NCBI RefSeq assembly: GCF_003044035.1
Contig: NZ_NVQC01000017.1
Span: 90,001-122,000, forward strand
Direction: 5' to 3'
Source: Candidatus Methylomirabilis limnetica
GTDB lineage: Bacteria > Methylomirabilota > Methylomirabilia > Methylomirabilales > Methylomirabilaceae
Length of the DNA: 32,000 nucleotides
The notes below the pieces were generated by a model that searched no databases, had not been told where the DNA came from, and saw only the letters and a program-made list of their open reading frames with translations. The position numbers and the translations under genes are program-made. Shown in pieces: positions 2,478 to 32,000 of the stretch. Within the stretch, counting starts at the first letter, position 1, and each line of letters opens with the position of its first letter.

Positions 2478-4058
2478 TCAAACCTTCACAAGTTTAACGA
2501 AGACTATGTCGGGGAGCCGCCGGATTTCGTCTATGACATGAGCAGGAACAGGGTTGTCGACATTCACCACTGACAAGGCCCTACCACCAGGCTGCGCCCG
2601 CCCTAACTGCATTCCGGCGATATTGACCCGGTTCTTTCCGAGCAGGGTGCCAATCGTCCCGATGACCCCAGGCACGTCCAGGTTGGAGAAGATCAGGAGG
2701 TACCCTTCGGGGATGGCTTCCAGGCGGAATTCGTCGATCCGGACGACCCTGGGTTCCCGGCGGCTGAAGAGCGTCCCCGCAACCTCACTCGTGCCACGGT
2801 CGCCATTGATCGAGACGGTGATGAGACTCGCGTAGTCGGCCTCCTCCAGCACCTTACTCTCAATTACCCGAATGCCGCGCCCTTTCGCCAGGGCCAAGGC
2901 ATTGACGTAGTTGACCTCGTCACCCATGAAGGGGTCCAGCACTCCCTTGACGACGGACGCGGTGAGCGGCGCCGGGTCGTAGCCCGCGATCTCGCCCCGG
3001 TAATCGATCCGGATCTGCCGGAGTCCCCCCTCGGCAAGCTGAGAGGTCAGGCGGCCTAGTTTCTCGGACAGGGTAAGGTACGGCTGAAGGACCTTGTACA
3101 GCGCCGGGTCAATCGACGGGGCATTCACGGCATTCCTGATGAGCCCTTTCTGGAGATACTCGACGACCTGCTGGGCGATCTCGACGGCGACATTCTCTTG
3201 AGCTTCCTCGCTCGCCGCGCCGATGTGCGGGGTACAGATGAAGTTGTTGAGCGTCAGCAGCGGCGCGCTGGTGGTAGGCTCCTGTTCAAATACGTCCAGG
3301 GCCGCCCCTGCAACCTTGCCGGCCTTCATTGCCTCATACAGGGCCGCCTCGTCGATGATCCCGCCTCTCGCACAGTTAATAATCCGAACCCCCGTCTTCA
3401 TCTGCGCGATGGCGTCGCGATCGATGAGATGGTACGTCTCTGGGGTGATGGGGGTGTGGATAGTGATAAAATCCGATCGCTGGAACAGCTCCGGGAGCCC
3501 CACCAAATCGACCCCTAGCGCTGCTGCGGCCTCCTCAGAGACAAAGGGATCAGAGACGATGACGCGCATGGCGAACCCTTTGGCGCGTCGAGCCACCTCG
3601 ACGCCAATCCGCCCCAAGCCGATAATCCCTAATGTCTTGCTTCCCACCTCGACGCTGATGAAGGCGCCCTTCTCCCACCGACCGCCCTTCATCGAGGCGG
3701 TGGCCTGCGGGATATTCTTGGCGAGGGCCAGCAGAAGCGAGAAGGTATGCTCGGCGGTGGTCAGGGTATTACCGCTCGGGGCATTCATCACCAGGACTCC
3801 GCGAGCCGTCGCCGCCTCGACGTCGATATTGTCCACCCCGACGCCAGCCCTTCCTACCACCTTGAGTCTGCGCGTAGCCCGCAGGATCTGGGCGGTTACA
3901 CTGGTGGCGCTTCGGACGATCAGGCCATCATAGTTGTCGATGCATTCCTGCAGCGCCTCGGGGCTCAGCTTGCGCCGCTCATCAACCTCGAACGCCTCGG
4001 CTTGGCGCAGAATCTCAATACCGCGTGGCGAGAGACCGTCGCTCACAAGAATTCGCAT
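2478..4058 (-). CDS. serA: D-3-phosphoglycerate dehydrogenase with C-terminal ACT domain
   Basis: 526 aa. NAD-binding GIIGLGRIG, 2-hydroxyacid dehydrogenase motifs (INCARGG, CTPHIGAAS), a long intervening domain and an ACT-like tail (LLIFSNLDVPGVIGTIGTLLG). Confidence 0.93.
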   Translation of the reverse strand: MRILVSDGLSPRGIEILRQAEAFEVDERRKLSPEALQECIDNYDGLIVRSATSVTAQILRATRRLKVVGRAGVGVDNIDVEAATARGVLVMNAPSGNTLTTAEHTFSLLLALAKNIPQATASMKGGRWEKGAFISVEVGSKTLGIIGLGRIGVEVARRAKGFAMRVIVSDPFVSEEAAAALGVDLVGLPELFQRSDFITIHTPITPETYHLIDRDAIAQMKTGVRIINCARGGIIDEAALYEAMKAGKVAGAALDVFEQEPTTSAPLLTLNNFICTPHIGAASEEAQENVAVEIAQQVVEYLQKGLIRNAVNAPSIDPALYKVLQPYLTLSEKLGRLTSQLAEGGLRQIRIDYRGEIAGYDPAPLTASVVKGVLDPFMGDEVNYVNALALAKGRGIRVIESKVLEEADYASLITVSINGDRGTSEVAGTLFSRREPRVVRIDEFRLEAIPEGYLLIFSNLDVPGVIGTIGTLLGKNRVNIAGMQLGRAQPGGRALSVVNVDNPVPAHVIDEIRRLPDIVFVKLVKV

Positions 4059-4076
4059 TCGTTCCCCTCTAAAAAG

Positions 4077-4102
4077 CAGCTATCAGCTATCGGCCATCAG
4101 CT
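4077..4102. repeat. Family C motif (cagctatcagctatcggccatcagct) in the serA 5' leader
   Basis: Related gctatcag strings lie upstream of the hisZ start (2374-2393) and the fmdB start (about 5964, agcagttatcagatc). All three are in 5' leaders of minus-strand genes. Confidence 0.6.
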
Positions 4103-4117
4103 AAAAGCTACTCTTTC

Positions 4118-5257
4118 TCAACATGCCTGGACCAGTACCTCCTGGGCCGCTCGTATCCCCTCGCCCAACTTGACTGGATAGCCGAGGTCAGCGAGGGTTC
4201 GTTCTAGCGCCGCCAGGCAGACGACAACGTCGGATTCATCGGCGTATCCCAGGTGGGCCAGGCGGAAGATCTTCCCCTTAAGCTGAGCCTGGCCGCCCGA
4301 GATGGTGATGCCGTGGGCTGCTCGAAGCCTCTTTACGATGGCACCGGCCTCGATGCCAGGCGGGGCGATAATAGTGGTCAGCGCAGGGGTAGGCCGCTCG
4401 GTGAATAGTTGGAGCCCGAGCGCCATGACTCCGGCGCGGGTCGCCCGCGCAAGCCGGTCATGTCGCGCGAAGAGCGCGGTGAGACCCTCTGCCCTGATCA
4501 CAGCGAGAGACTCATGAAGCGCCACAACCAACGAGACCGCCGGCGTAAAGGTGTTCTGGTTCTTCTCCAGGCTCTTCCGCTCAGCGATAAAATTGAAATA
4601 GAACTTCGGGAGTCGAGATCGCTGCACCATGGCCCAGGCCTTGTCAGAGACCCCACACAAGGCGAGACCCGGCGGAATCATCAGCGCCTTCTGAGTACCG
4701 CCCACGACGACGTCCACCCCCCAGGCGTCCATCGGCAGGTCCACCACCCCCACGCTCGTAATGGCGTCAACGATCAGGATGGCGGGCGTCTTTCCGACGA
4801 TCCGAGCAATCGCCTCAATATCGTGCAGGACACCCGTGGAGCTCTCACTATGAGTCGTGAAAACCGCCTTGATCGAGGGATCGGCCGTAAGGGCTGCCGC
4901 CACAAGGTCAGGCTCCACGGCGCGCCCCCACTCCACATCAATGTACGACGGCTGAAGGCCATAGGCCTCGCAGATCTCCCCCCAGCGCTCGCCGAACTTG
5001 CCGCCGCGGATCACCAGGGCCCGGTCACCTGGCGAGAGCGTGTTGACCACCGCGCCTTCCATCCCACCCGTGCCGGACGATGTGAATAGCAGCACCTCGT
5101 TCTTGGTTTGAAAGAGGAACTTAAGCCCCTCCCGGACGGAGGCGAGAAGGACTTCGTACTCCGGACCGCGATGGTACAGGATCGGCCTGGCCATCGCCAG
5201 CAAGGCTTCCGGAAGGACCTGAGTCGGACCCGGCGCTAACAGATGTCGCTTTTTCAT
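4118..5257 (-). CDS. Class-V (AGXT/serine-pyruvate type) aminotransferase, probably the phosphoserine aminotransferase partner of serA
   Basis: 379 aa. Motifs PGPT, SSGTGGMEG and the PLP-lysine region GGTQKALM. It lies directly upstream of serA on the same strand. Confidence 0.8.
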   Translation of the reverse strand: MKKRHLLAPGPTQVLPEALLAMARPILYHRGPEYEVLLASVREGLKFLFQTKNEVLLFTSSGTGGMEGAVVNTLSPGDRALVIRGGKFGERWGEICEAYGLQPSYIDVEWGRAVEPDLVAAALTADPSIKAVFTTHSESSTGVLHDIEAIARIVGKTPAILIVDAITSVGVVDLPMDAWGVDVVVGGTQKALMIPPGLALCGVSDKAWAMVQRSRLPKFYFNFIAERKSLEKNQNTFTPAVSLVVALHESLAVIRAEGLTALFARHDRLARATRAGVMALGLQLFTERPTPALTTIIAPPGIEAGAIVKRLRAAHGITISGGQAQLKGKIFRLAHLGYADESDVVVCLAALERTLADLGYPVKLGEGIRAAQEVLVQAC

Positions 5258-7804: not shown

Positions 7805-8092
7805 ATGCGCATCATTTCGAGAAAGGCTTTGCGCCAGTTTTGGGAGCAATACCCGGATAGTAAATTGGCGCTGACGCGCTGGTTCAAAATCGTGCGGCAC
7901 ACCACCTTTCGCGGTTTTGGTGAATTGCGGACGACTTTTCCCTCAGTTGACAAAGTCGGCAAATGGATTGTGTTCAACATCGGTGGCAACAAATATCGGC
8001 TGATCGCAGTCATTCACTTTAGTCGGGGTAAACTATACATTCGCCATGTTCTCACGCATCAAGAATATGACAAAGGGAGTTGGAAGCAATGA
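7805..8092 (+). CDS. higB: HigB-family mRNA interferase toxin
   Basis: MRIISRKALRQFWEQYPDSK ... FNIGGNKYRLIAVIHF ... YIRHVLTHQEYDKGSWK is the HigB toxin signature. The ATGA overlap with the next gene indicates coupling. The track start 7787 is a TTG inside the operator. Confidence 0.85.
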   Translation: MRIISRKALRQFWEQYPDSKLALTRWFKIVRHTTFRGFGELRTTFPSVDKVGKWIVFNIGGNKYRLIAVIHFSRGKLYIRHVLTHQEYDKGSWKQ

Positions 8093-8487
8093 GCACTCTC
8101 ACGAAAGACCTCCAAAGTCATTGGGCCAATATTCGCCCCATCCTAACGATTCGCAATGAGCGCGAATATGACTCGGCGATTAAGCGGCTAAAGGAGTTGT
8201 TGGATGAAATCGGTGATAACGAGCGCCATCCCCTGTATGGCCTGTTAGATACGCTAGGCACGTTGATTCACGTTTACGAGGAAAAACATCATCCCATGCC
8301 TGGATGCGCTGGAGCTGACATGCTTCAATTTTTTATGGAAGAGCATGGTTTGAATCAATCGGACTTGGCAGACATCGGCTCTCAGGGCGTCGTGTCCGAA
8401 ATCCTGAATGGCAAGCGGGAATTGAATGTTCGCCAGGTTCGTCTTTTGGCAAGGCGGTTTCAGGTGTCACCCGCCGTGTTCATCTGA
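8089..8487 (+). CDS. higA: HigA-family antitoxin (XRE helix-turn-helix)
   Basis: The C-terminal HTH (LNQSDLADIGSQGVVSEILNGKRELNVRQVRLLARRF) and its position immediately after higB. Confidence 0.85.
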   Translation: MSTLTKDLQSHWANIRPILTIRNEREYDSAIKRLKELLDEIGDNERHPLYGLLDTLGTLIHVYEEKHHPMPGCAGADMLQFFMEEHGLNQSDLADIGSQGVVSEILNGKRELNVRQVRLLARRFQVSPAVFI

Positions 8488-8506
8488 GCTACACGCCGCT
8501 AGCGCC

Positions 8507-8526
8507 GCCCAACACCGCGTCCAGCC
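8507..8526 (+). other. Left half of an attC-like site (truncated)
   Basis: GCCCAACaccgcgtccagcc, 19 nt after the higA stop, parallels GCCTAACtccggcttgcagac at 7187. It breaks off into AT-rich sequence followed by a transposase remnant. Confidence 0.35.
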
Positions 8527-8596
8527 TAAAACAAATAGAAAACAAATAGGGACAGACACTATTATTGTGACGAGTTGTGGTGTTTACGGTCATGAT

Positions 8597-8824
8597 CGTG
8601 CCTGCTACGGATTACCCAAACTTATTGTACCCGGCCACCCGTATCATGTGAGGCAACGAGTGAATGATCACCAGGCGGTCTTTCGGAACGACAGCGATTC
8701 GAAGGCACACGATGACAGGGCGGCCACTACGAAGAGACGGGTTCATCTGGGAGGTGCGCAGGAAACTGGACGAGTAGTACCCGTGCTGCAGAGGGGAAGG
8801 CCAAGAAAGGACCTCAATAAATAG
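8597..8824 (+). pseudogene. Remnant of a REP-associated tyrosine transposase (RAYT / IS200-like Y1 transposase)
   Basis: LPKLIVPGHPYHVRQRVNDHQAVFRNDSD matches the RAYT N-terminal motif (LPRLxxPGxPxHVxQRGNxRQxxFxxDxD), and the C-terminal tail is RGRPRK. Only about 75 codons remain where roughly 200 or more are typical, so the gene appears internally deleted. Confidence 0.5.
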
Positions 8825-9020
8825 TGCCTGTATGCGTGCCAGGAGAAGACGCTCCGGCCGGGGTGAGCATACCATCCTGACTGAATCCGCCGAACCGCCG
8901 TATACGTGATCCGTATGTGCGGGGGTGTGGAAGGAGAGGAGCAGTGAGGCTCCTCCCTATCCCGATTGGCTTTCCCAATCTCCGGTTTTGTCTTGCCGTG
9001 GGATGGAAAATCTGCAGAAT

Positions 9021-9037
9021 CTTACTGGTAAGATAAT
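9021..9037. promoter_or_regulatory. Candidate operator and -10 element of the AbrB-PIN module
   Basis: Inverted repeat CTTAC-tg-GTAAG overlaps GATAAT. GGGAGG RBS at about 9044-9049, ATG at 9056. Confidence 0.3.
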
Positions 9038-9055
9038 CCTATTGGGAGGTGAAAA

Positions 9056-9319
9056 ATGGCTGGTGTCGCAACAACGAAGATGTCATCCAGGGGTCAAGTC
9101 GTAATTCCCGAAGGCATCCGGAAAAGACTCGGATTTACAACCGGTTCGCAATTCGTCGTTATCGGGGAGGAGGACACCGTAATCTTAAAGGCGATATCTG
9201 CTCCTACGCTGGCAGATTTCGACGAGCTCGTGTCAGAAGCTCGAAGACAGGCCCGTCAAGCCGGAATGAAGAGATCCGATGTCGTTGCGGCCATCAGAGA
9301 AGCCCGAGGGGCAAAGTGA
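9056..9319 (+). CDS. AbrB/MazE/SpoVT-family antitoxin
   Basis: MSSRGQVVIPEGIRKRLGFTTGSQFVVIGEEDTVILK is a swapped-hairpin SpoVT/AbrB domain. Its stop overlaps the GTG start of the PIN gene (GTGA). Confidence 0.8.
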   Translation: MAGVATTKMSSRGQVVIPEGIRKRLGFTTGSQFVVIGEEDTVILKAISAPTLADFDELVSEARRQARQAGMKRSDVVAAIREARGAK

Positions 9320-9728
9320 GGATCGTCCTTGATACGAATGTCTCATCTCGGGCGTGTTCTTTTCAGGTCCACCCTTTCAAATCCTAAAGGCATGGCGAGA
9401 TCGTAGGATTCAGATCGCCCTCTCCGAGGAAATCCTTCAAGAATATCAACGAGTCGGGGAGACCTTGGCTGCGAGGCACCCAGGAGTACATCTGGGTTCT
9501 ATTCTAGATCTGCTCTCTGTAGAGGCCGACTTGTTTTCTTCCCCGGATTTACCAAATCCCGCTTGCGAAGACAGGACGGATGACAAGTTTTTTGCTTGTG
9601 CCTTGGCGGCTAGAGCAAGAATTGTGGTCAGTGGGGATAAGCACCTCTTGAAGGTGAACCACTATCGAGGTATTGAGGTGATAAGACCCCAGGAATTCGT
9701 GCATCGCTACCTAAAGGCGCAAAGCTAA
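9316..9728 (+). pseudogene. PIN-domain toxin (TIGR00305-like) disrupted by a 1-nt frameshift near 9343
   Basis: GTG 9316 gives VRIVLDTNV in frame 1. The conserved continuation ISGVFFSGPPFQILKAWRDRRI ... CEDRTDDKFFACALAARARIVVSGDKHLL is in the frame of track ORF 9354..9728, starting at 9345. One missing base between 9342 and 9345 would restore VLDTNV-x-ISG. Confidence 0.8.
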
Positions 9729-9857
9729 CTTCTGGCGATACCGCGACCCGGCAAAGCCACGTGCGTGACTGGCCGGCCCTCGCTGTGGCGGCCTCTAGCC
9801 GGTCACTCCGGCGGGCCCCTGGGTTATCCAGCATACTTATGGAACGATTTGTTAGGC
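9723..9857 (+). other. attC-like site
   Basis: AGCTAAC (9723-9729) contains the TAA stop of the PIN gene, and GTTAGGC lies at 9851-9857. Internal imperfect palindromes: ctggcgata with tatccag, and central gtgactggc with gccggtcac. There is about 17 nt of extra sequence next to the distal core. Confidence 0.4.
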
Positions 9858-10041
9858 ACATCCTCTTTGTGTGGCAAGCTTAAATGATCGCTGTCCCTAT
9901 TTACGCCTCTTGACAGGACCTCCATTTACTAGGAAGATGCACGCACAAGATGGTCGGCGCTCCGCTCCGCAGGTCGGACCAGACGGAACCAGATGGCCTG
10001 AGTCCAATGTGGACGGACGTCGTGCTCTGTCGGGAGACGGT

Positions 10042-22150: not shown

Positions 22151-22438
22151 ATGAAGCTCATCGGGCGGGATGTCTTCCAGCTATTCGTACGGAAACATCC
22201 CGACGCCAGATCTTCTCTGAAGAGCTGGACGCAGGCCGTGGAGTCCAACAGCTTCAAGCACTTCGTAGATCTTAAGAAGACCTTTGGGTCAGCGGATCAG
22301 GTCAAGGCGCACACGGTGTTTAATATCTGTGGGAACAAGTACCGGCTGATCGCTGTCGTGGACTATACTATTCAATCTGTGTCAATTGAGTGCGTGCTGA
22401 CGCACGCCGAGTACGATGAGGAACGTTGGAGAAAGTGA
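22151..22438 (+). CDS. higB: HigB-family toxin, second copy
   Basis: FNICGNKYRLIAVVDY ... CVLTHAEYDEERWRK parallels the first HigB. Confidence 0.85.
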   Translation: MKLIGRDVFQLFVRKHPDARSSLKSWTQAVESNSFKHFVDLKKTFGSADQVKAHTVFNICGNKYRLIAVVDYTIQSVSIECVLTHAEYDEERWRK

Positions 22439-22439
22439 C

Positions 22440-22907
22440 ATGACGATCGCAACACTTGAAAAGAAGCTTAAACCGCTGGAGTCGCCGGTAGACAACGAGC
22501 TACTTCGGTGGCTCTATCTCCATCTGCCGCTGCAACCCATCACGAGTAGAAAGATGCACCGCGGTTACAGCGAAGCGGTCCGCATCCTGATGCGGGAATC
22601 CGGAAGCCTGGACGCCGACAACCGAACGGCTGTCGGCCGGTATCTGCGCGCTGTCATTCCTTTCATCGAACAGTACGAAAAAAGAATATTCCCTATTGGT
22701 CCGGCAACCCCTGAGGAAATGCTTGGGTTCCTCATGCAGCAGCATGAGCTCAGCCAGTACGATCTCGCGAAAGAGCTGGGGGGCCAGTCCGTCGTTTCGC
22801 AAATCCTCAGAGGGAAGCGAAGGCTTACACGAGAGCACATCGAGCGATTGAGTAAGCGATTCGGGGTGACTCCAGCAACCTTCTACCCCGGAGGCGCCTC
22901 GGCCTGA
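22440..22907 (+). CDS. higA: HigA-family HTH antitoxin, second copy (longer N-terminal domain)
   Basis: ATG 22440 lies 1 nt after the higB-2 stop. HTH: LSQYDLAKELGGQSVVSQILRGKRRLTREHIERLSKRF. Confidence 0.8.
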   Translation: MTIATLEKKLKPLESPVDNELLRWLYLHLPLQPITSRKMHRGYSEAVRILMRESGSLDADNRTAVGRYLRAVIPFIEQYEKRIFPIGPATPEEMLGFLMQQHELSQYDLAKELGGQSVVSQILRGKRRLTREHIERLSKRFGVTPATFYPGGASA

Positions 22908-23101: not shown

Positions 23102-23599
23102 TCAGCGTCCTGACGCTGCCGGATAATTCAGTTGAATCTCTACGCGCGTCTGACTGTTCGAGACATGAAATGCCACTTGCTTATGGCTGGGTGTGATCAG
23201 GAATAAGCCAGGGTTATTCGAGAAACCGCCGCCTTCGCTAGGCAACCCGATCCGGTTCCTATCAAATTTCCCATTGCCGTTTTCATCGTGATATACCGCA
23301 GCGGCGTACACGCCTACCTTTGGTGCAATCACACAGAACGTGACGATCCCTCGCTTCGCTGGAATGCGTTGCTTTAAGATTTTCTTGCCTTTCACGAGGA
23401 AATCACTCGGATTATCGCCATACAGGACGAACATGATATTCCCGCGATCGCTCCTGACTCCCCGCACTCGGACATCGATGGTGGTAGAAGTGCGGTCACA
23501 TGCCGGCTCGATCGCCTCGATCCGGCCAGATACACCCCATGAGAGCAACAGCAGACAAGTAAGCCCGAGGCCCGATACTACTGACAATACGCGATGCAT
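23102..23599 (-). CDS. Secreted DUF2141-family protein
   Basis: Signal peptide, then GNIMFVLYGD ... VYAAAVYHDENGNGKFDRNRIGLPSEGGGFSNNP, which matches the DUF2141 core. Confidence 0.7.
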   Translation of the reverse strand: MHRVLSVVSGLGLTCLLLLSWGVSGRIEAIEPACDRTSTTIDVRVRGVRSDRGNIMFVLYGDNPSDFLVKGKKILKQRIPAKRGIVTFCVIAPKVGVYAAAVYHDENGNGKFDRNRIGLPSEGGGFSNNPGLFLITPSHKQVAFHVSNSQTRVEIQLNYPAASGR

Positions 23600-23606
23600 C
23601 GTACTG

Positions 23607-24569
23607 CTATCGATACGCCTTGCGCCAATAGAGCTTGCCGAGGATCAGCGCCGTCGCGAGCCATGGGTGACGTTGTAGACGCGGTGGCACTTCTGACCTC
23701 ATACCGGAATGTCGTTCGATCTTCCACAGGATATAGCTTGCACCACCCTGAAAAGTGAATACCCCTTTAAGAAGGCGCAGGATGTTCAGTATTTTTCCCT
23801 GCACTTTCCGGATTCGCCATGCAAGGCCGGTGATGGAGCGGGTAGAGCGGGGTATGATCGCGTGATATCTACTCGGCCTGCCTTCTTCTACCAGCCGCAC
23901 GTCAAACTGTACACACCCTATCCCAATGCGGGTGATCTGCTCATAGTAATCAAGTGAGTCATCTACCAACCGCACCACGGCATCTGCCCGTTCAGGCCGT
24001 AGTTCGGTGCCATAGCTCAGGCGCAGTGCCTGCTGCCACAGTTCGCGAGCATCGAACGTCGATGGTAGAACCGGAAGGACACGACCGATAAATGTCACGA
24101 TAGCCTGAGCTAATGCCTTGAACACCCGCTGGGCTCCGTCCTCATCGCGAACGTAAAGTGCCCCAGTAGGTTGTGCGTACCTTCCCCAGAGGTGCGAATT
24201 AAAACAGCGTGTTGATGTTCCTCGCTCGAAATCCGTACAGGAAATCACAGTATACTTTGTCCGGATGGCACGACCGTCACACTCGATCCCCATGGAAAAG
24301 ACGGTCGGCGGTAAGGTGCGGTACAGCCAGCGCTGCCACAAGGTCCCAGGGAGAGACCGGTAGCTGTCAACCAGTACGCAAAGATCAACAAGTCCCTCGT
24401 CCGTCTGATTTCGGAAACAGGAGCCATACGCAAGAATGGCGACCACGGCGTTGCCATAGCGCGCTAGAAGCGTATCAGCCAAGGCACGAACCCCCGGCGC
24501 GCCGGGTCGCGCACTATGCTGCTCGATGCAGGAGGCTAGCTGCGTCCAAGCTTCCCGTCTACCGCGCAT
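23607..24569 (-). CDS. Putative Tam41/Mmp37-like nucleotidyltransferase (candidate CDP-diacylglycerol synthase of the non-CdsA type)
   Basis: 320 aa. AILAYGSCFRNQTDEGLVDLCVLVDS is NTase-like (GS ... hDhxh). IRTKYTVISCTDFERG ... HLWGRYAQP is reminiscent of Tam41 iKYGVvs..l..DL..W..lYlaGRlqKP. This is similarity by eye only. Confidence 0.4.
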   Translation of the reverse strand: MRGRREAWTQLASCIEQHSARPGAPGVRALADTLLARYGNAVVAILAYGSCFRNQTDEGLVDLCVLVDSYRSLPGTLWQRWLYRTLPPTVFSMGIECDGRAIRTKYTVISCTDFERGTSTRCFNSHLWGRYAQPTGALYVRDEDGAQRVFKALAQAIVTFIGRVLPVLPSTFDARELWQQALRLSYGTELRPERADAVVRLVDDSLDYYEQITRIGIGCVQFDVRLVEEGRPSRYHAIIPRSTRSITGLAWRIRKVQGKILNILRLLKGVFTFQGGASYILWKIERHSGMRSEVPPRLQRHPWLATALILGKLYWRKAYR

Positions 24570-25710
24570 ACGTCGCCGTTCTCGGGTGACGCCACGCCTG
24601 CATCGGATTTTGTCCGGCCTTTCCCGCTACTCTCGCGCCTCGCAACAGTTCGCGGAGCGCAGCCCACAAACTGGGGAAGATCCCCTTCTTGTATGGCGAG
24701 TCCTCGGTAAGTGCGCTCATCAAGCGGCGATGGGCCTCGCCCATAGAGTGATAGGGCATGAGCGGAAAAAGATGATGGAGGGCATGATAACGCAATCCAA
24801 TTGGAAATAGGAGCAGCGTCAACAAGGAACGTCCCTCGATAGTCTGAGAGTCCTCGATCTGCTCCACGTAGGTCATGTTGCCTCCCGTATTCAGGAAACG
24901 GTGCGCAGCCAGCGTACGAACCCAGTTCAAAGCGATTGTAGAGATCGACAGACCATAGACCATTCCAACCGTCGTCCATACGATAAATCCTTTGAAAATC
25001 AGTCCGATGACGACGACTAACCACAGCAGACAGAGAAGATCCAGTGCTGCCCAGAGGCCCAGAGGTTCCGTTGATGGAATGACGCGCCGATAGTAGGGAT
25101 TGATGGTATACGAGGACCATTGTTCCAGGAGCCACCGCCGAGAGGGGGGATAGAGAAATGACAGCGGCACCAGGACCAGGAAGCGAAAAGCAGCCAGGAG
25201 CGGCACAACCGGAATCTGTGCGAGATACAGTACCGTTTCGCGAATAGGAGCCGAGGCCAGAGGGAGATATTCTCCCTCAGCCGGGGTGCCAAACTTGCGA
25301 GGGTAATGATGGTCAAGATGGCTACGGTATAGAAGTGAATGGAGGAGAAAAGGCACCCCGAACAGAAGATTCCAGGCGATATGAAATCCTATCATGGAGG
25401 GCTCCTCTCTATGGACAAGCTCATGGATGAAGATGCCAACCCTGAATAACGCCAGCCCGGAAACCAGGAATGCTACAATCTGCATGACCGAGAACGCTGG
25501 CGCCATCAGGTAGATCGCAGCAAAGCCGTACCCAATGGACACCGTCATCAGAAAGTCAGCCCAATAGAGTGCGGGCTTTGGTGTGAACAGATCCTGAACA
25601 AGCCTCTTGGCCTCTCGGTGCGAAAAAGCCGGAGTCTCTCGCTCGTCGGTAGCCGGCGATTTCGGTCCATGCAGGGCAGCAGAAGGCGCCATTTTATTAG
25701 AGTCGTACAA
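24559..25710 (-). CDS. Membrane fatty-acid/lipid desaturase (three His-box di-iron family)
   Basis: His boxes HELVH, HLDHH and HALHH with multiple TM segments. It overlaps both neighbours (by 11 and 14 nt). Confidence 0.85.
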   Translation of the reverse strand: MYDSNKMAPSAALHGPKSPATDERETPAFSHREAKRLVQDLFTPKPALYWADFLMTVSIGYGFAAIYLMAPAFSVMQIVAFLVSGLALFRVGIFIHELVHREEPSMIGFHIAWNLLFGVPFLLHSLLYRSHLDHHYPRKFGTPAEGEYLPLASAPIRETVLYLAQIPVVPLLAAFRFLVLVPLSFLYPPSRRWLLEQWSSYTINPYYRRVIPSTEPLGLWAALDLLCLLWLVVVIGLIFKGFIVWTTVGMVYGLSISTIALNWVRTLAAHRFLNTGGNMTYVEQIEDSQTIEGRSLLTLLLFPIGLRYHALHHLFPLMPYHSMGEAHRRLMSALTEDSPYKKGIFPSLWAALRELLRGARVAGKAGQNPMQAWRHPRTATYAR

Positions 25711-26728
25711 AGTCTATCTCCCCGCCGTGAGTCACCGTTAATACGCGCGGCGACTCGCCCGCAAGGATTTGTCCGTCAAGCGCGCATTTCGCCTTTAATT
25801 GCAGTACGGCTTCATGGATGTTCCTGCTCGTGTACCCAGACTCAGGTGTCAGGTACCGGTTGGGTCTACCATGGAAGAACGAAGGCGCAGCGAGCAGAAG
25901 ATCCTGGTGCTCATAGGCAACCGCCGTATACCTGAGTGGACCATCCCCCTCCCCCCAGTACGGTCGTATTCCTGGATTCAAACGCACCAACGTGGTGATG
26001 AACAGCGCGAGGTAGTTGTGCGTACCGCACGATTGACCGTCTAAACGAACAGCGATCGGGGTGGGCTCAACAACGCGTCGTCCCATGGCAAGGCCCAGGA
26101 GATACCGGCCCACTGTGACGGCTGTCCCCAGGCCACCGCGCATCAGTTTCGATCCGGCCTGCCGGCGAGTCGCCCGTCGAACGCGAGTGACTTGAACGAT
26201 GCCGGCGGCGCTGAAGAACATCCCAAACTGAGGGGCACTGCCCGGTCCACAATCCACCCGCAGGATCGCCCGCCGGACAAGCTGTCCCGAGGGCCCCCTA
26301 CCCTCTGACCAAGCCAGCAGGCGCTCTAAGGCCCGCACCGGCTTACCTCCCATGCCGACGTCGGCAGCGGTCATATTCGTGGTCCCCCCTGCAATAAGAA
26401 CTACCAAAGGTCTCACCGCAAAGGGGCTGGTAGGAAACAGGGCAGTCAGCATGGCATGGACGGTTCCATCACCACCGCAGACAGCCAGGACCTCTACTTG
26501 CTGCGCAGCCATGTCTGTAAGGGCGCCGGCTACGTCCTTTGGCCCCCTAACCAATCGGTGGATCGCCGGCTTGTACCGGTCCAGGATGCGCAGGATGGCC
26601 TGAAGACTGTGTCGATTCGCCCCGCTCTGCGGATTGATCAGGATGCCAAGCCGTCGCGGCCGGCTGGTGTCCCACGGATTCGGGGCGCAAGGAGTAGAAC
26701 CGACGTCATTCTTCGCAAGCATAGGCAT
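25697..26728 (-). CDS. Diacylglycerol-kinase-family lipid kinase (DAGK_cat / YegS-LCB5 type)
   Basis: LGILINPQSGANR ... AVCGGDGTVHAML ... LIAGGTTN are the soluble lipid kinase motifs. Confidence 0.85.
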   Translation of the reverse strand: MPMLAKNDVGSTPCAPNPWDTSRPRRLGILINPQSGANRHSLQAILRILDRYKPAIHRLVRGPKDVAGALTDMAAQQVEVLAVCGGDGTVHAMLTALFPTSPFAVRPLVVLIAGGTTNMTAADVGMGGKPVRALERLLAWSEGRGPSGQLVRRAILRVDCGPGSAPQFGMFFSAAGIVQVTRVRRATRRQAGSKLMRGGLGTAVTVGRYLLGLAMGRRVVEPTPIAVRLDGQSCGTHNYLALFITTLVRLNPGIRPYWGEGDGPLRYTAVAYEHQDLLLAAPSFFHGRPNRYLTPESGYTSRNIHEAVLQLKAKCALDGQILAGESPRVLTVTHGGEIDFVRL

Positions 26729-26761
26729 GGCGGTGCTAATGCGGCGCAGAGGCGATCCCGG

Positions 26762-27982
26762 TCACGCTTCGCTTCCCGAAGACGGCATTCGATCGGTAAA
26801 CAGCCGTACGGCAAGCGAACGGTCGCCACAGTGTCCAATTCCATCGGCTAGCCAGGATCGTAACGGTCCGTACGTAATCCGCGCATAGACGGCGGTGCCA
26901 AGGCGTACCAGGAGCAGAAGGGTCGAGAACGCCGTCCATACGGTAACGGCAGCTAATCCCAAATCCGGCCTGCTGAAACCCAGGCTTACGGTAAGAAGGA
27001 TCAGATTGGGATTGCGTCTGGCAGTTACGAGTCTGAAGTAGGAGTCAAAGGGACGCCAGCAGAAGATACCGTACTGGCCAAGCAAATGCTGAAATGCGCC
27101 CTCGACCAAGCGTCCGAGAATGTATCCGATGAAGATCGCCCATACCGCGAGGTTCAGAGTGAGTGACGGAATGCCCGGGTGGAAGGACTCCAGCCCGACG
27201 CCCCACAGCAGGTACCACACCGGGGGATGGACCAGATCCAGGATCTTGTCCAGAAAGTGGCCGAACCGGGTGCTCGTGACGGTCACCCTGGCGAGCTTCC
27301 CGTCTACCGTATCGAGGAAGGTCATGACCCATGCGGCGGCAAGTCCCCATCCGTAGCTACCTTTAGCAAACAGGGTCGCGGCCACGATGACCAGTACCAC
27401 GCTGGTCATCGTGACATGGTTCGGCCTCATGCCCACGGCTACGCACAGACGCGTCACCCATTGGGCAGGAGTAGGCCACACCCATTTAGTGACCAGATCG
27501 GTCACGCTTCTGTAGGAGCTGGAAAACAAGCGCTCCTCCAGCGCGCGTTTGTTTTCGGCCCTGATGGGCACCACAAAGGGTGGCTCCGATTTGCGTAACG
27601 ACTTGTTAAATGACGAGAGCAGGCCTTCAAGTTGCTCTATGCTGACTCCCGGTAGAGCAGCCGTGTGACCTTCCGAAGACAGCATCGCACTGGCCTCCGC
27701 CGCCAGGTTAGCCGGCACATGAGCTGCAACGACCGCGCGAGATGTTCCGATGGGCACCTGGAACACGACATTCAACGACCTGGCCAGACTGTGAAGGACC
27801 CGGCCATCGAAAAGGTAATCCCCGCGAACGATGAGCACGGAATCGTCTGGTTTCACGGAGGAGAGATCATCCACAATCGCCGTGACCCCCGCCTGCCTCA
27901 GCACGCGCCGGCAGCGCTCGCGGGATGATAGCTTCCACAGCGTGACTGGAGCCTCTCTAAGTATGTGGGCGCAAACAGCCAT
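26762..27982 (-). CDS. CDP-alcohol phosphatidyltransferase with degenerate N-terminal nucleotidyltransferase-like domain
   Basis: Full signature DTVDGKLARvtvtstrfGhflDkilD (DxxDGxxARx8Gx3Dx3D). About 160 N-terminal residues resemble the IPCT-DIPPS-type sugar-nucleotidyltransferase module but lack the GxGxR loop. Confidence 0.85.
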   Translation of the reverse strand: MAVCAHILREAPVTLWKLSSRERCRRVLRQAGVTAIVDDLSSVKPDDSVLIVRGDYLFDGRVLHSLARSLNVVFQVPIGTSRAVVAAHVPANLAAEASAMLSSEGHTAALPGVSIEQLEGLLSSFNKSLRKSEPPFVVPIRAENKRALEERLFSSSYRSVTDLVTKWVWPTPAQWVTRLCVAVGMRPNHVTMTSVVLVIVAATLFAKGSYGWGLAAAWVMTFLDTVDGKLARVTVTSTRFGHFLDKILDLVHPPVWYLLWGVGLESFHPGIPSLTLNLAVWAIFIGYILGRLVEGAFQHLLGQYGIFCWRPFDSYFRLVTARRNPNLILLTVSLGFSRPDLGLAAVTVWTAFSTLLLLVRLGTAVYARITYGPLRSWLADGIGHCGDRSLAVRLFTDRMPSSGSEA

Positions 27983-28089
27983 TACTCACAATGGGTACGC
28001 TTCCCGGCAGATGAGGGACGCCACCCGTTTGTTGTCCGGAAACATGGCCGACCATTCGTAGGACCAGGCAAAAAACGACTATTTATACT

Positions 28090-28120
28090 ATAGAAAGGTC
28101 GATCCAGTCAAGATCGACCC
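28090..28120 (-). terminator. Candidate intrinsic terminator after the ABC exporter gene
   Basis: On the minus strand: GGTCGATC-ttgactg-GATCGACC followed by TTTCTAT, 12 nt after the stop. An AT-rich tatagtataaat stretch follows and could be a promoter for the downstream operon. Confidence 0.4.
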
Positions 28121-28131
28121 CTCAACTGGGA

Positions 28132-29874
28132 TTACGCCTGTGGCATGATTGGGATAAGGCCCGAATCATGGTCGCTCGTAACCAAAGAAACCTCGCCGTG
28201 TCGTATCCGGTAGACCCTGTCGGCAGACTCCACCACGGTAGGCTGATGCGAGATGGCCAAAATCGTCAACCGGCCCAGAAGGCCACGGAGCATTCGGCAT
28301 ATCTCAGTCTCGGTCTCCGGATCGAGCGCACTGGTAACTTCGTCCAGAATCAGCAGTTTGGGCCGATGTGCCAGCGCCCTGGCGATGGCGATGCGTTGCC
28401 GCTGGCCTCCTGACAGCGTCGACCCGCGCTCCCCGACCGAGCTGTGGATCCCGGAGGGCCGTGCTATCACAAAGTCCCAGGCGCCTGCAGCACGCAGAGC
28501 GGCTTCGGCATCAGCCTCGCTCAGCTCCGGATCGCCAAGCGTCACGTTCTGCAGCACTGTGTCGTGAAACAGGAAGGTCTCTTGTGGTACATATCCGATC
28601 ATCCGCCGCCACTGCCTGAGATCCACGCTGTCCAGCGGCAGGTCGTCGATAAAGACATGACCTTGCTGCGGACGCAACAGACCCGTAAACAGATCTGCTA
28701 TCGTCGTTTTCCCCGCCCCGGATGGTCCCATGATGGCAGTGAATGATCCCACCGGAACGGTCAGCGACGCATTCCAAAGCACACGATGTTTTCCATATCC
28801 AAAGTTGACCTTGTCCAGGCAAAGGGCTCTCTCGAGGTGGGGGGGAAGGCCTCCTGGCTCTGCTTCACGGTCACGGTTCGCGCCGTCAATGGCCGCTTGC
28901 AACGACCAGAAGGCGCTTTCCAGGGTTCGCATTTTCTGGTATTGCCGCTGCATCTTGGCCAGGCAGGTCAACAATCGAGCAAGAAGGAACACCATAACCA
29001 TTACGATATTAAACGGCATCTGCCACCGGCTAAGGGCCACATATAACCCGACAGCAATAATGACGGTTAAAAGAATCTCTTGGGAGGAGCTGAGCAGCTC
29101 GGTGCTGAGTACTTCACGCTGAAACGCCCGGTTTAATCGCCTGGCGTTGGACTTGAGGGGAGGGCCGATCAACTCTTCGCGCGCCATCGCTTTGAGGGGT
29201 TTGATGGATTGAAGGCTATCAGTTAGGCCGGCGAGAAGGGATTTTAATAAATGGGTCTGGCGGTTTCCAGCTCGGTGTGCCATGCGGATGAAACGGTTGA
29301 GTCCATAGAAGATTACGATTCCGGGAACCAGTATTCCCAAGGTTGTCTTCCCCGCAACAACGAAGGCTACACATGCATACACAACGGCCTCTATAAACAG
29401 GGTCGTACTCTTGGCGCCCTCAAGGTACGCCATTGAAGCCCGCATCGCTTCAGTACCTACTGCGTTAGCGAAGCTTCCGACGGGTTGGCGCACGTAATAC
29501 TCCCACCGAGCGGCCAGCAGAGCTTGGAGCAGCGAGAGTCGTAGTTCAGTGGCGACGTGCGTAACCGTATAGCCGACCTGAGTTTTGGCCAATAGGAGAA
29601 ATGCCCCTTTGACCGTCACACAGAAGACAATAACAATCAGCAGCGTACCGACTGTCGGCGTGAGTCCTACGACTGAAAGTGATTGCATCAGGATATGCTG
29701 CGCACCGGATGGGAGCGAACCGGTCACAAAGGTCTTTTCACCGGTCGCCATGCTCAGCATCGGAAGCAGAAAGAGGAGTCCGGCCCCCTCTGCAATGCTG
29801 GCGAACAAGAGGGAGATGAGGGTGAGTGCGCTCCGTCGCGGATACATCCGGACGATGGTACTTAAAAACCGCAT
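28132..29874 (-). CDS. ABC exporter, fused permease-ATPase (MsbA-like type I exporter)
   Basis: Six-TM N-domain, Walker A GPSGAGKTT, signature LSGGQRQRIAIARAL, Walker B LLILDEVTSALD. I chose the start ATG 29874 (MRFLSTIVRMYP). The track start 30171 would overlap the upstream gene. Confidence 0.9.
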   Translation of the reverse strand: MRFLSTIVRMYPRRSALTLISLLFASIAEGAGLLFLLPMLSMATGEKTFVTGSLPSGAQHILMQSLSVVGLTPTVGTLLIVIVFCVTVKGAFLLLAKTQVGYTVTHVATELRLSLLQALLAARWEYYVRQPVGSFANAVGTEAMRASMAYLEGAKSTTLFIEAVVYACVAFVVAGKTTLGILVPGIVIFYGLNRFIRMAHRAGNRQTHLLKSLLAGLTDSLQSIKPLKAMAREELIGPPLKSNARRLNRAFQREVLSTELLSSSQEILLTVIIAVGLYVALSRWQMPFNIVMVMVFLLARLLTCLAKMQRQYQKMRTLESAFWSLQAAIDGANRDREAEPGGLPPHLERALCLDKVNFGYGKHRVLWNASLTVPVGSFTAIMGPSGAGKTTIADLFTGLLRPQQGHVFIDDLPLDSVDLRQWRRMIGYVPQETFLFHDTVLQNVTLGDPELSEADAEAALRAAGAWDFVIARPSGIHSSVGERGSTLSGGQRQRIAIARALAHRPKLLILDEVTSALDPETETEICRMLRGLLGRLTILAISHQPTVVESADRVYRIRHGEVSLVTSDHDSGLIPIMPQA

Positions 29875-30064
29875 GGCGACACCAAGCAGCTCCGAATAAG
29901 GTTGACTACTGACCAGGAACCTTGACGATGCAGGCGGGATATCACGTCTAACCGGGTCCGAAAAGTCGAAGCCTGGCGCCTCCGACAGGCTTGGAATAAG
30001 ATGCCATAACGCTGCTCCACGGTACGTTCCATTGAACACGCGGTGGCCAAGCTTATGACCGCTA

Positions 30065-31240
30065 TCATAACCGCAAAAGAGGCGACATGCTGTTGTGCCC
30101 CATAACGGCCGCGAGAAAGTCGGCAATGGCGTCAGCGCCGCGTTGGGCTGCGGTGCTGTCTGGCTCCTCATGAAAGGTATAGGCGAATCCTGCGCGCTGC
30201 TTGGGCAGGAATTGGGGGTGGGTTTCCGAAGCGACCTCCAGAGCCGGGCCGAGACCGTGCGAGACGTCGTCTATCACCTGTCCAAAGTGCCAATGCGCGT
30301 AGTATGGATTATGCTCCCACGTAACCCTATGCGCGTTGAGAAAGATACAGGGCTTGGGATCGAGGAGAAACTCGTATACCTGGCTGCTCACGTCGCCCAG
30401 ATAGATATCGGCCGCGAGCGTATACGTCATATCGGCTGAGGCCGGACTGCCGGTATCGATCAGGATATTTGGGACCCCTTTGTAACGGCGCGGAAGCCAT
30501 GTACCGTGCCGCCAGCGGCGCGCAAAGAGCACGACGTGTGGCGCAAAGATGAGGTTGTAGTGCGGATTGGCAACAAAGAAATCGAGGACCGCGTGTCCCA
30601 TCCTGGCCCATGACGCGACCTTCTGGTCGAAGTGCGGGTTATAGACGACGACCGGGTTGGCGTTGTGGAACAAGCGCGGTCGCTTGGGCTTGAGAGCTCG
30701 AACGACATCGAACTTCGGCCAGCCGATCACCGCGTAGCGACCGGCACACAGATGGCCTTCCTTTATGAACCGGTCGACGTATTTTTGCCCAGGCAACAGC
30801 ACGAAATCGAACAGCGTGACGTGCTCGTCCCTCGTTCCTTCGCGGTCGCCGGCGCCATGCCGCGTGTGGATGAGTTTCAAATCCCTCAGGCCGTATTGCG
30901 TGCGCAACCGTCGGCAGTGTCGCTCCGGCGCGACCAGTGCGTCGAGGCTCCTGAAGAAATCAAGATTGTCCTTGAGAATGCGCTTCTTACGCTCGAATGT
31001 GAACTTTGACACCACAGGATCGATCAGAGGATACCACCACGCCGGGTGGAGGCGGAGGAGTGTGCAGCGATGCCCGGGATAGAGCTCGCCGATCGATCTG
31101 GCCATGTCGGCCTCAGCTTCGGTTGAGGCGGCGATGATCACCTCGAATTCCGGGTGCCGGCGCGACAGTTCGTAGGCGTAGGGCGTCGCGTGCGGCACCT
31201 GATGCGGCGAGTAGTGGTTGAAGAGGAAGCCGATGCGCAT
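30065..31240 (-). CDS. TagB/TagF-like glycerophosphotransferase-type (or related GT-B) transferase
   Basis: IGWPKFD, VVVYNPHF ... and ADIYLGDVSSQVYEFLLDPKPCIFLN resemble the CDP-glycerol glycerophosphotransferase C-terminal motifs (GxPRxD, YAPTxR, DxxITDYSSxxFDF). An alternative TTG start lies at 31276. Confidence 0.45.
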   Translation of the reverse strand: MRIGFLFNHYSPHQVPHATPYAYELSRRHPEFEVIIAASTEAEADMARSIGELYPGHRCTLLRLHPAWWYPLIDPVVSKFTFERKKRILKDNLDFFRSLDALVAPERHCRRLRTQYGLRDLKLIHTRHGAGDREGTRDEHVTLFDFVLLPGQKYVDRFIKEGHLCAGRYAVIGWPKFDVVRALKPKRPRLFHNANPVVVYNPHFDQKVASWARMGHAVLDFFVANPHYNLIFAPHVVLFARRWRHGTWLPRRYKGVPNILIDTGSPASADMTYTLAADIYLGDVSSQVYEFLLDPKPCIFLNAHRVTWEHNPYYAHWHFGQVIDDVSHGLGPALEVASETHPQFLPKQRAGFAYTFHEEPDSTAAQRGADAIADFLAAVMGHNSMSPLLRL

Positions 31241-31295
31241 AGTGTCCAGGCTCTGTTCGTGATCGTCGGCGCGCAATGCGGGAGCTGCAGCCGCT

Positions 31296-32000
31296 TCAGG
31301 CGGTACGCTCGCACGGGATTGCGGATTCGGCCGCCTGATGTCGCCGCCACTGCTGGAACATCAGAACGCACCACAGCAACCGCTGGCGGTTGTGCGACCC
31401 CGCAAGGTGTTCGCGCCAGCGCGCGCGGACAAGGGTGGGGTTGAAAAAGCCATCCTCGGCGAGCCGCTGCTCGTCGAGAAGCTCTTCCGCCCACGGCCGC
31501 AATGGACCGCGAAGCCACACCTTTACCGGCACGGCAAAGCCCCTTTTCGGGCGGTCAACGAGCGCTCGCGGCACATGCCGGTAGAGGACCTGGCGCAGCA
31601 GCCGCTTGTTCTCGCCTGCACCGGCGTATTTGAGCGCCGGCGTAAGGCGCCAGACATATTCCACAATGCGATGGTCAAGCAGCGGAACACGAACCTCAAG
31701 GCCGAACGCCATGCTCGCCCGATCCACCTTGGTAAGGATGCCATCCGGCAGACGTGTGGTCATATCGAGGCAGCCTATGCGTTCCATGAAGTCGGGCAAG
31801 CTAGCGCCTGCCGTCGCGTCCTGGAGCAGATCCGGCCGCTCACGCGCGCCAGGGATGACGGCGGCCGGGTCCTCCGGCGTACTGACCACCTGACGGTAGA
31901 GGTCGCCCTCAGTTACCGCCGCGAAGGCGTGGGTTAGCTCGCTCACCCGACTGAGCGAGAGTCCGGGGCGGAGGAAGACCGGGAGGACGCCACACAGCAT
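31296..32000 (-). CDS. Asparagine synthase (glutamine-hydrolysing)-family amidotransferase, C-terminal part (5' end outside the window)
   Basis: LTKVDRASMAFGLEVRVPLLDHRIVEY ... KRLLRQVLYRHVP ... PKRGFAVP is the AsnB synthetase domain. Confidence 0.85.
   Translation of the reverse strand: MLCGVLPVFLRPGLSLSRVSELTHAFAAVTEGDLYRQVVSTPEDPAAVIPGARERPDLLQDATAGASLPDFMERIGCLDMTTRLPDGILTKVDRASMAFGLEVRVPLLDHRIVEYVWRLTPALKYAGAGENKRLLRQVLYRHVPRALVDRPKRGFAVPVKVWLRGPLRPWAEELLDEQRLAEDGFFNPTLVRARWREHLAGSHNRQRLLWCVLMFQQWRRHQAAESAIPCERTA

Follow-up and report, generated by a model that had tools for sequence, protein, structure and literature searches.

This work deals with a 32,000-nucleotide stretch of the genome of Candidatus Methylomirabilis limnetica (contig NZ_NVQC01000017.1, positions 90,001 to 122,000; hereafter the window), and in particular with eight co-directional open reading frames (ORFs), all of them present on its minus strand between positions 23102 and 32000. 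In our assessment, these genes are probably one half of a sphingolipid cluster, the half that serves head-group synthesis, tailoring and export, and the cluster is homologous to the one with which Caulobacter crescentus makes its anionic sphingolipids, ceramide phosphoglycerate (CPG) and ceramide diphosphoglycerate (CPG2). The locus is a known, Caulobacter-type system in a new phylum (Methylomirabilota, NC10), present there as a variant, and not an undescribed pathway. The variant is characterized by an ATP-binding cassette (ABC) exporter gene and a TagF-like gene near spt (the serine palmitoyltransferase gene), by a desaturase or hydroxylase embedded among the core genes, by a DUF2141 gene, and by a pair of genes specific to M. 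limnetica (a GT4 gene and an AsnB-type amidotransferase gene). An apparently complete Caulobacter-type system of sphingolipid synthesis and export is hereby placed in the NC10 nitrite-dependent methanotrophs.

An earlier description of the region, made from the DNA letters alone (the sequence-only reading), had stated that it knew of no characterised bacterial operon with this exact combination of genes. The combination is not uncharacterised, since the core domain content and order are those of the published Caulobacter cpgA-cpgB-cpgC genes.

Comparison of the core genes with the Caulobacter cpg genes

In C. crescentus, cpgA-cpgB-cpgC (CC_1159-CC_1161) are responsible for the conversion of ceramide into CPG and CPG2 (PMC9393093, PMC11324152, PMC10331486, PMC12275187). 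CpgB has been purified and characterised as a ceramide kinase, and belongs to the DAGK/LCB5 family (PMC10331486). CC_1161 has the InterPro domain of the Tam41 cytidine diphosphate-diacylglycerol (CDP-DAG) synthases, and in CC_1159 a cytoplasmic N-terminal domain precedes PF01066 (PMC11324152 S1 Text). The window has the same three domain types in the same order: a CpgA-like CDP-alcohol phosphotransferase with an N-domain (406 amino acids, aa; 26762..27982), a CpgB-like DAGK/LCB5-family lipid kinase (343 aa; 25697..26728), which is a candidate ceramide kinase, and a CpgC-like nucleotidyltransferase of the Tam41/Mmp37 fold (320 aa; 23607..24569). The domain types previously assigned to the transferase and the kinase, and likewise to the desaturase, the DUF2141 protein, the ABC exporter and the AsnB protein (Asn_synthase), were all borne out by profile searches, with the defining motifs intact in the transferase, the kinase, the desaturase and the exporter.

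The transferase matches PF01066 with 50.9 bits (cut-off 22; E = 3e-13), its motif D224xxDGxxARx8GxxxDxxxD249 is intact, and by simple hydropathy it has three strongly hydrophobic segments, as many as the helices reported for CC_1159. Its relatives in the PDB are AF2299 (which also has a cytoplasmic N-domain) and a phosphatidylinositol-phosphate (PIP) synthase; AF2299, IPCT-DIPPS-type (Archaeoglobus) and PIP synthases all have the same catalytic motif and the same architecture of N-domain plus membrane domain. The window protein differs from AF2299 and IPCT-DIPPS in its genomic context, which is sphingolipid synthesis and not the synthesis of an inositol solute or of phosphatidylinositol, and in its N-terminal cytoplasmic domain (~170 aa), which has no glycine-rich nucleoside triphosphate (NTP)-binding loop and, because of this, would not be a working cytidylyltransferase like IPCT. 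For the same two reasons, a role in compatible-solute synthesis (IPCT-DIPPS-like) was considered and rejected. The sequence-only reading had called this N-domain degenerate and nucleotidyltransferase-like, which finds some support in a weak alignment (hhalign against NTP_transferase, probability 26%) where the region around GDYLFD alone aligns, to the second half of CpgD-like nucleotidyltransferases; the domain has no Pfam nucleotidyltransferase match. A degenerate nucleotidyltransferase is a plausible, if tentative, description of it. The kinase, in turn, matches DAGK_cat of Pfam with E = 5.6e-15 and has GGDG at residues 85-88.

Tam41 itself is a genuine CDP-DAG synthase. The Tam41/Mmp37-like character that the sequence-only reading gave to the third protein is sub-threshold in Pfam (PF09139, 15.8 bits against a gathering cut-off of 24) and was borne out by a family profile and by the predicted structure. 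Many homologues of this protein carry PF09139, and the profile built on the family matches Schizosaccharomyces pombe Tam41 (6IG2) with E = 3.6e-4. For the AlphaFold model (pLDDT 88.2), the five best PDB matches found by Foldseek are all Tam41 (E 2e-10 to 5e-8, TM 0.56-0.63), followed, after a clear gap, by the next non-Tam41 fold at E about 7e-4. Additionally, the nucleotidyltransferase signature G49-S50...D62 is invariant. The predicted model thus confirms the Tam41 fold for the product of 23607..24569. Both the fold and the G-S...D signature are common to this protein and to the mitochondrial and Firmicutes CDP-DAG synthases (6IG2, 6IG4, 7ECD). The window protein differs from these enzymes in sequence (~15% identity, under the Pfam threshold), and its context, together with the Caulobacter genetics, points to ceramide-1-phosphate, and not phosphatidate, as the likely substrate.

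A bridge between the two systems is provided by plasmid p546-2 of Roseomonas haemaphysalidis, which has exactly the Caulobacter gene order from the CpgD-like gene to the acyl carrier protein (ACP) gene, and whose proteins share 33-54% identity with their M. limnetica counterparts (Tam41-like protein 33%, kinase 34%, CDP-alcohol transferase 44% over residues 7-381). For the Tam41-like protein of a metagenome-assembled genome labelled 'Hyphomicrobiales', no Caulobacter protein is found among the best 120 homologues listed.

The cluster continues upstream with probable ceramide-synthesis genes

The window genes are the downstream half of a 13-gene, ~20-kb co-directional sphingolipid cluster. A 120-kb contig (L088), which is 100% identical to window positions 32000-26079 (5.9 kb), reaches 9.2 kb past the window end and contains, in co-directional order, the genes for a fatty acyl-AMP ligase (769 bits, cut-off 600), an epimerase-family (CerR-like) reductase, an 82-aa ACP, the serine palmitoyltransferase Spt (NCBIfam equivalog NF047599, 620 bits, cut-off 500), the GT4 protein and the full 655-aa AsnB. 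Transcribed divergently on the same contig are the genes of a 380-aa bCerS-like GNAT protein and then of a nucleotidyltransferase of the NTP_transf_3 family (CC_1153-like). In this way, spt, a dedicated ACP, the CerR-like reductase, the acyl-ACP synthetase-type ligase and the bCerS-like GNAT all lie within 9.2 kb of the window end. With a ligase, a reductase, an ACP and Spt beyond that end, the genes do not form the self-contained, salvage-type route that had been proposed for them. The mention of a ceramide-like lipid as a possible substrate, made in the same proposal, agrees with the closest characterised system.

The Caulobacter region spans 17 genes (CC_1152-CC_1168) and, besides the cpg genes, also contains aasR-cerR-acpR-spt, bcerS with a nucleotidyltransferase gene, CpgD, lptF2/G2, a metallophosphoesterase and a HIT protein. 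The order ligase, reductase, ACP, Spt on L088 is that of CC_1165-1162, and the GNAT gene followed by the nucleotidyltransferase gene is the arrangement of CC_1154-1153 (PMC11324152 S1 Text). On three Methylomirabilis contigs (L090, L093 and L153), LptF, LptG and metallophosphoesterase genes come after the GNAT and nucleotidyltransferase pair, with a close CpgD-like gene in L153, so that the LptF/G paralogues and the metallophosphoesterase of Caulobacter have counterparts in close relatives of M. limnetica. Caulobacter also has a TagF-type gene, CC_1167 (which is cofit with the cpg genes), of which the TagF-like gene of the window is the candidate counterpart. The differences are also clear: the host belongs to the Methylomirabilota and not to the Proteobacteria; the place taken in Caulobacter by the candidate flippase CC_1166, a Wzx-like protein, is occupied in M. 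limnetica by an ABC half-transporter; the desaturase or hydroxylase gene lies inside the cpg operon, whereas Caulobacter has the related CC_0202, a hydroxylase of the DesA family whose target is the amide-linked acyl chain, at an unlinked site; a DUF2141 gene has been added; and the GT4 and AsnB genes are inserted after spt.

Approximately 18 kb from the cluster, on the minus strand of the window (2478-5257), there are genes for a SerA-type 3-phosphoglycerate dehydrogenase with an ACT domain and for a class-V aminotransferase; these two enzymes would provide serine to Spt.

Conservation of the cluster across species

A scan of species-representative genomes found relatives of the Tam41-like protein in at least 582 species, and the best 80 of these relatives come from Nitrospirota, Desulfobacterota, Gammaproteobacteria, Myxococcota, Calditrichota and Nitrospinota. 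The sequence-only reading had named conservation of the gene neighbourhood as a check, and the genes do co-occur in other genomes: of 69 eligible species loci, 56 have the kinase gene directly before the Tam41-like gene, and a CDP-alcohol transferase gene is found at most 5.5 kb upstream of the latter in 38 of 60. To look at the wider neighbourhood, neighbouring ORFs were clustered for 31 species-representative loci, each flanked by 9 kb or more of sequence in either direction. The most recurrent families are LptF/G and the metallophosphoesterase (26 loci each), NTP_transf_3 and GNAT (23 each), NTP_transferase (22) and the fatty acyl-AMP ligase (18), with Spt found in 11 loci and the ABC exporter in nine. 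In Syntrophus, the order is Spt, ABC, TagF-like, nucleotidyltransferase, LptF, LptG, metallophosphoesterase, transferase, kinase and Tam41-like. Close relatives within Methylomirabilis, and Nitrospirota as well, have the full Caulobacter gene set, with the metallophosphoesterase and with nucleotidyltransferases of both the CpgD-like and the CC_1153-like type, and cultured carriers of the same cluster are Desulfopila aestuarii DSM 18488 and Desulfoprunum benzoelyticum DSM 28570. In the original description, cpgC homologues were found only in Caulobacterales and Sphingomonadales, and the published homologues are from Proteobacteria only, with a broad conservation of CpgB already noted in the literature; the known range of the cpgC type is, therefore, much wider than originally described.

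Some of the sequences collected deserve a separate mention. The IncP plasmid pPNP1 of Pseudomonas sp. JS425 (L171, 1-20000) carries a near-complete sphingolipid cluster a few kb from a class 1 integron (intI1, sul1), with genes for an ABC exporter, Spt, ACP, reductase, ligase, nucleotidyltransferase, LptF/G, kinase, Tam41-like protein, metallophosphoesterase, an Asp/Asn beta-hydroxylase, a CDP-alcohol transferase and a cytidylyltransferase, together with a bCerS-like GNAT gene apparently split by an IS5 element. Further matches are found on a second Pseudomonas plasmid and on a Diaphorobacter plasmid. A contig labelled 'Patescibacteria group bacterium' (L007, DATMXF010000146.1) is syntenic with the window at 78-82% nucleotide identity, and one labelled 'Hyphomicrobiales' (L057, JBLMXM010000048.1) encodes a Tam41-like protein with Desulfobacterales proteins among its few named relatives; judging by these sequence relationships, both labels look like binning or labelling errors.

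ABC exporter, TagF-like protein, AsnB and GT4

Both the ABC exporter gene and the TagF-like gene keep company with the cluster repeatedly, also in phyla far from the Methylomirabilota. The exporter gene (28132..29874) encodes a half-transporter with fused membrane and ATPase domains, 580 aa long according to the called genes on contigs L087-L089. It matches ABC_tran (E = 1.1e-32) and ABC_membrane, with the Walker A motif at residues 482-489 and LSGGQ at 586-590 (numbering of the window ORF). Its best NCBIfam models are HepA, CydD and MsbA, all under their cut-offs (HepA-family 265 bits against 725; MsbA, TIGR02203, 219 against an equivalog cut-off of 602). The protein is of the same exporter type as MsbA and, in related loci, it is paired with LptF/G paralogues, which recalls LptB2FG; it differs from MsbA in its score, far under the equivalog cut-off, and in that it adjoins spt. 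The exporter gene adjoins spt in 14 loci, among them those of Desulfobacterota, Syntrophus and the Pseudomonas plasmid, where the homologues have 44-53% identity. On these sequence grounds, we regard the half-transporter as a candidate sphingolipid flippase and not as an MsbA orthologue.

The TagF-like gene (30065..31240, 391 aa) encodes a protein 100% identical to CLG94_05845 of Ca. M. limnetica, which by its predicted structure and the names of its homologues would be a GT-B-fold phosphotransferase or glycosyltransferase. Searches with the ORF against Pfam, NCBIfam (E <= 0.01) and PDB sequences gave no match, not even to PF04464, a family found in one of the 120 homologues listed. The likeness to TagF that had been proposed is supported by the AlphaFold model (pLDDT 88.4), which has a GT-B fold and reaches TM 0.60-0.61 to TagF, among the highest values listed, and by the homologues (60-84% identity across phyla), some of which are named TagB/SpsB-family glycerophosphotransferase in their source. 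It is weakened by the fact that other GT-B enzymes score similarly, with UDP-GlcNAc 2-epimerases (one at TM 0.62) and GT4 enzymes close to TagF by E-value. The HTRHG and NPHF motifs are invariant. The gene recurs in four other cluster loci (L037, L041, L073 and L077) with 61% identity. The comparison with the TagD/TagF logic of teichoic acid synthesis extends to the cytidylyltransferases that clusters of the window type also hold; it differs in the lack of a PF04464 match and in the acceptor, which would be a sphingolipid and not a linkage unit. Klein and colleagues reportedly proposed the TagD/TagF analogy for CpgD and CpgA. In one Methylomirabilis-like locus (L153, 2428-4851), two tandem TagF-like paralogues, each 79-81% identical to the window protein, lie between Spt and the ABC exporter, an arrangement that suggests that head-group elaboration may vary.

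The AsnB-type glutamine amidotransferase is represented in the window by the C-terminal 234 of its 655 aa (31296..32000; Pfam Asn_synthase E = 3e-47), the gene running past the window end. The full gene, found on L088 at 7978-9945, scores 484 bits against TIGR01536 and is XrtA/PEP-CTERM amidotransferase-like. An AsnB gene beside the cluster was found in M. limnetica-like contigs and in no other lineage examined; since it is not conserved with the cluster elsewhere, its position is the only link between AsnB and the pathway. The GT4 family found on L088 recurs in three other cluster loci.

Desaturase or hydroxylase and DUF2141 protein

Between the kinase and Tam41-like genes lies the gene for a membrane di-iron desaturase or hydroxylase (24559..25710, 383 aa), with a PF00487 (FA_desaturase) score of 74.3 bits (cut-off 29.7; E = 1.7e-20) and three His boxes (HELVH 96-100, HLDHH 131-135 and HALHH 309-313); a PDB sequence search with it gave no match. 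A desaturase gene in this position is found only in Methylomirabilis and in some Nitrospiraceae loci, with degenerate remnants elsewhere. In some Nitrospirae loci (L004, 9736-10020; also L011 and L012), a remnant of ~70 aa with 42-59% identity sits between the kinase and Tam41-like genes, which, from the sequences, looks like gene decay.

The last gene (23102..23599) encodes a 165-aa DUF2141 protein (PF09912, E = 1.6e-28), whose hydrophobic N-terminus suggests that it is secreted; it is probably a periplasmic accessory protein. DUF2141 is a recurrent but sporadic accessory of the cluster: in R. haemaphysalidis (L172, 6421-6981) it lies between the HIT and metallophosphoesterase genes, and in Qipengyuania citrea (L170, 12882-13379) it adjoins the kinase and Tam41-like pair, whereas it is absent from the Desulfobacterota and Nitrospirota cluster loci examined. 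In Sphingomonadales, DUF2141 is also found beside the carotenoid hydroxylase gene crtG (PMC5989583). Directly downstream of the DUF2141 gene, on the plus strand (22151-22907), the window contains a HigB toxin (E = 2.6e-27) and helix-turn-helix antitoxin pair, and two sister contigs (L087 and L089, 97-98% identical) have an IS200-like Y1 transposase at that spot, so that the junction between the cluster and a Mg-chelatase-like gene differs between strains.

Alternative interpretations

Several points weigh against the assignment of these genes to a Caulobacter-type sphingolipid system. Their equivalence to Caulobacter CCNA_01217-01219 is deduced from published domain descriptions, from gene order and from the bridging alphaproteobacterial locus; a literature search found no lipid or sphingolipid report for Methylomirabilis; and the CpgD-type cytidylyltransferase, LptF/G and the metallophosphoesterase are seen in related contigs only, the M. 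limnetica DNA examined ending before that region. Moreover, among the NCBIfam models that the CDP-alcohol transferase matches below threshold, (archaetidyl)inositol-phosphate synthases score best, some Desulfobacterota loci have the kinase and Tam41-like pair only, with no spt within 10 kb, and CpgB also phosphorylates diacylglycerol in vitro (PMC10331486). The last two observations speak for a CdsA-independent glycerolipid salvage route, in which diacylglycerol would be phosphorylated to phosphatidate, converted to CDP-DAG by the Tam41-like enzyme and given its polar head by the CDP-alcohol transferase. The predicted fold (that of a CDP-DAG synthase), the DAGK family of the kinase and the nearest models of the transferase, which use CDP-DAG or CDP-archaeol, are equally in line with such a route. 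Nevertheless, we consider it highly improbable, given that the co-directional block also holds spt, a dedicated ACP, a CerR-like reductase and a bCerS-like GNAT, in a linkage that recurs across phyla, and that deletion of cpgB in Caulobacter leaves phosphatidate levels unchanged, the cpg genes acting on ceramide (PMC10331486, PMC9393093).

A different question is whether the product resembles that of Caulobacter. With inositol-phosphate synthase models scoring best for the transferase, the head group need not be phosphoglycerate, and the lipid could be ceramide phosphoinositol, ceramide phosphoglycerol or a glycosylated and amidated derivative, in a Caulobacter-like system that makes no CPG or CPG2. 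TagF-like enzymes usually use CDP-glycerol or CDP-ribitol, Zymomonas is reported to accumulate ceramide phosphoglycerol, M. limnetica has the additional GT4 and AsnB genes, and the CpgD-type gene is missing from the stretch of its DNA that was examined. The full Caulobacter gene set found in Nitrospirota and among close relatives in Methylomirabilis, with both of its nucleotidyltransferase types and its metallophosphoesterase, points, on the contrary, to the same chemistry as in Caulobacter, and a different head group is, in our view, unlikely. We also find it decidedly unlikely that the AsnB, TagF-like and ABC exporter genes are chance neighbours that belong to an adjacent locus for an exopolysaccharide or other cell-surface glycan. 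Such a locus would explain why AsnB and GT4 score best against XrtA/PEP-CTERM exopolysaccharide-associated models, why AsnB is absent from every other cluster locus examined, and why a hairpin (see below) lies between the ABC gene and the core. It is at odds with the 14 loci in which the exporter adjoins spt, with the TagF-like gene of the four other loci and the cofitness of CC_1167, with the recurrence of the GT4 family, and with the sphingolipid genes that lie on both sides of the three genes; these facts leave the glycan-locus explanation plausible for AsnB only. A role in lipopolysaccharide modification, considered on account of the LptF/G and lipid A acyltransferase genes near some loci, was set aside, as the cluster is accompanied by spt and by the genes for the ligase and the bCerS-like GNAT.

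Proposed pathway

Returning to the Caulobacter-type sphingolipid system, the folds, motifs, Spt identity and gene linkage described above are shown by the analysis; we infer the product and the order of reactions largely from Caulobacter. Ceramide (or dihydroceramide) would be made upstream by the fatty acyl-AMP ligase, ACP, Spt, the bCerS-like GNAT and the CerR-like reductase, as suggested by homology and, for Spt, by the equivalog model. The CpgB-like kinase would phosphorylate it to ceramide-1-phosphate, as the characterised CpgB does, and the CpgC-like Tam41-fold enzyme would act on ceramide-1-phosphate, most likely with CTP, to give an intermediate of the CDP-ceramide type from which the first head group would be reached. 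To our knowledge, a CDP-ceramide-type activated sphingolipid has been demonstrated in no organism so far, and a literature search for 'CDP-ceramide' found no paper. The activation of ceramide-1-phosphate by CTP is, as a hypothesis, already present in the literature.

The CpgA-like transferase would then extend the head group with a phospho-alcohol unit from a CDP-activated donor, presumed to be CDP-glycerate in Caulobacter. The reaction logic of the sequence-only reading (phosphorylation of a lipid alcohol, a Tam41-type step and head-group transfer by the CDP-alcohol enzyme, with tailoring and export nearby) fits Caulobacter, but its linear order departs from the Caulobacter genetics in one step, since cpgA is dispensable for CPG and needed only for CPG2, while cpgC is needed to convert ceramide phosphate to CPG. 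Concerning tailoring, the His-box enzyme may desaturate or hydroxylate the ceramide; more speculatively, the TagF-like GT-B enzyme might add or polymerise phospho-alcohol units on the head group, and GT4 and AsnB might decorate it further in M. limnetica. As for export, the recurrent adjacency of the genes suggests that the completed lipid is flipped over the inner membrane by the ABC half-transporter and then handed to the outer membrane by the LptF/G paralogues, which close relatives encode on the cluster's other arm. Comparative gene content nominates the spt-adjacent ABC exporter (as flippase), the highly conserved TagF-like enzyme and the DUF2141 protein as candidate components of these systems.

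A more general proposal, which we put forward only tentatively as a possibility, is that non-proteobacterial diderms (Methylomirabilota, Nitrospirota, Desulfobacterota and others) build polyanionic phosphosphingolipids through a Tam41-fold, CDP-ceramide-type step and TagF-like extension from CDP-activated units, and export them to the outer membrane by means of an ABC flippase encoded beside spt together with LptF/G (plus DUF2141 in some lineages), the M. limnetica lipid being also glycosylated and amidated. A literature search for sphingolipids in Nitrospirota or Desulfobacterota found nothing relevant.

Gene spacing and other features of the window

The gene layout given by the sequence-only reading (eight co-directional genes on the minus strand and the spacings of the last five) proved exact. 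From the transferase gene to the DUF2141 gene, there is a 33-nt gap (26762 to 26728), a 14-nt overlap (25697/25710), an 11-nt overlap (24559/24569) and a 7-nt gap (23607 to 23599). Two of the gene lengths had to be corrected, namely those of the TagF-like gene (391 aa and not 403) and of the ABC gene (580 aa and not 679), which results in gaps of 55 and 190 nt between the three upstream genes. Within the 190-nt gap between the TagF-like and ABC genes, and overlapping both of its ends, a 68-aa ORF is annotated in sister contigs (approximately 29862-30068, minus strand).

A gap of 149 nt (27983..28131, minus strand) separates the ABC gene from the core. RNA folding finds in it a 13-bp hairpin directly after the stop codon of the ABC gene (-23.2 kcal/mol, z = -2.8), and a sigma-70-like match, TTGACT-N18-TATAAA, is visible by eye. 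A consensus promoter/terminator scan flagged neither and so did not support the terminator and promoter-like elements previously proposed for this gap, of which the hairpin alone is demonstrable. Finally, positions 8000-9800 of the window have a G+C fraction of 0.52-0.53, against about 0.60 elsewhere, and contain several small ORFs.

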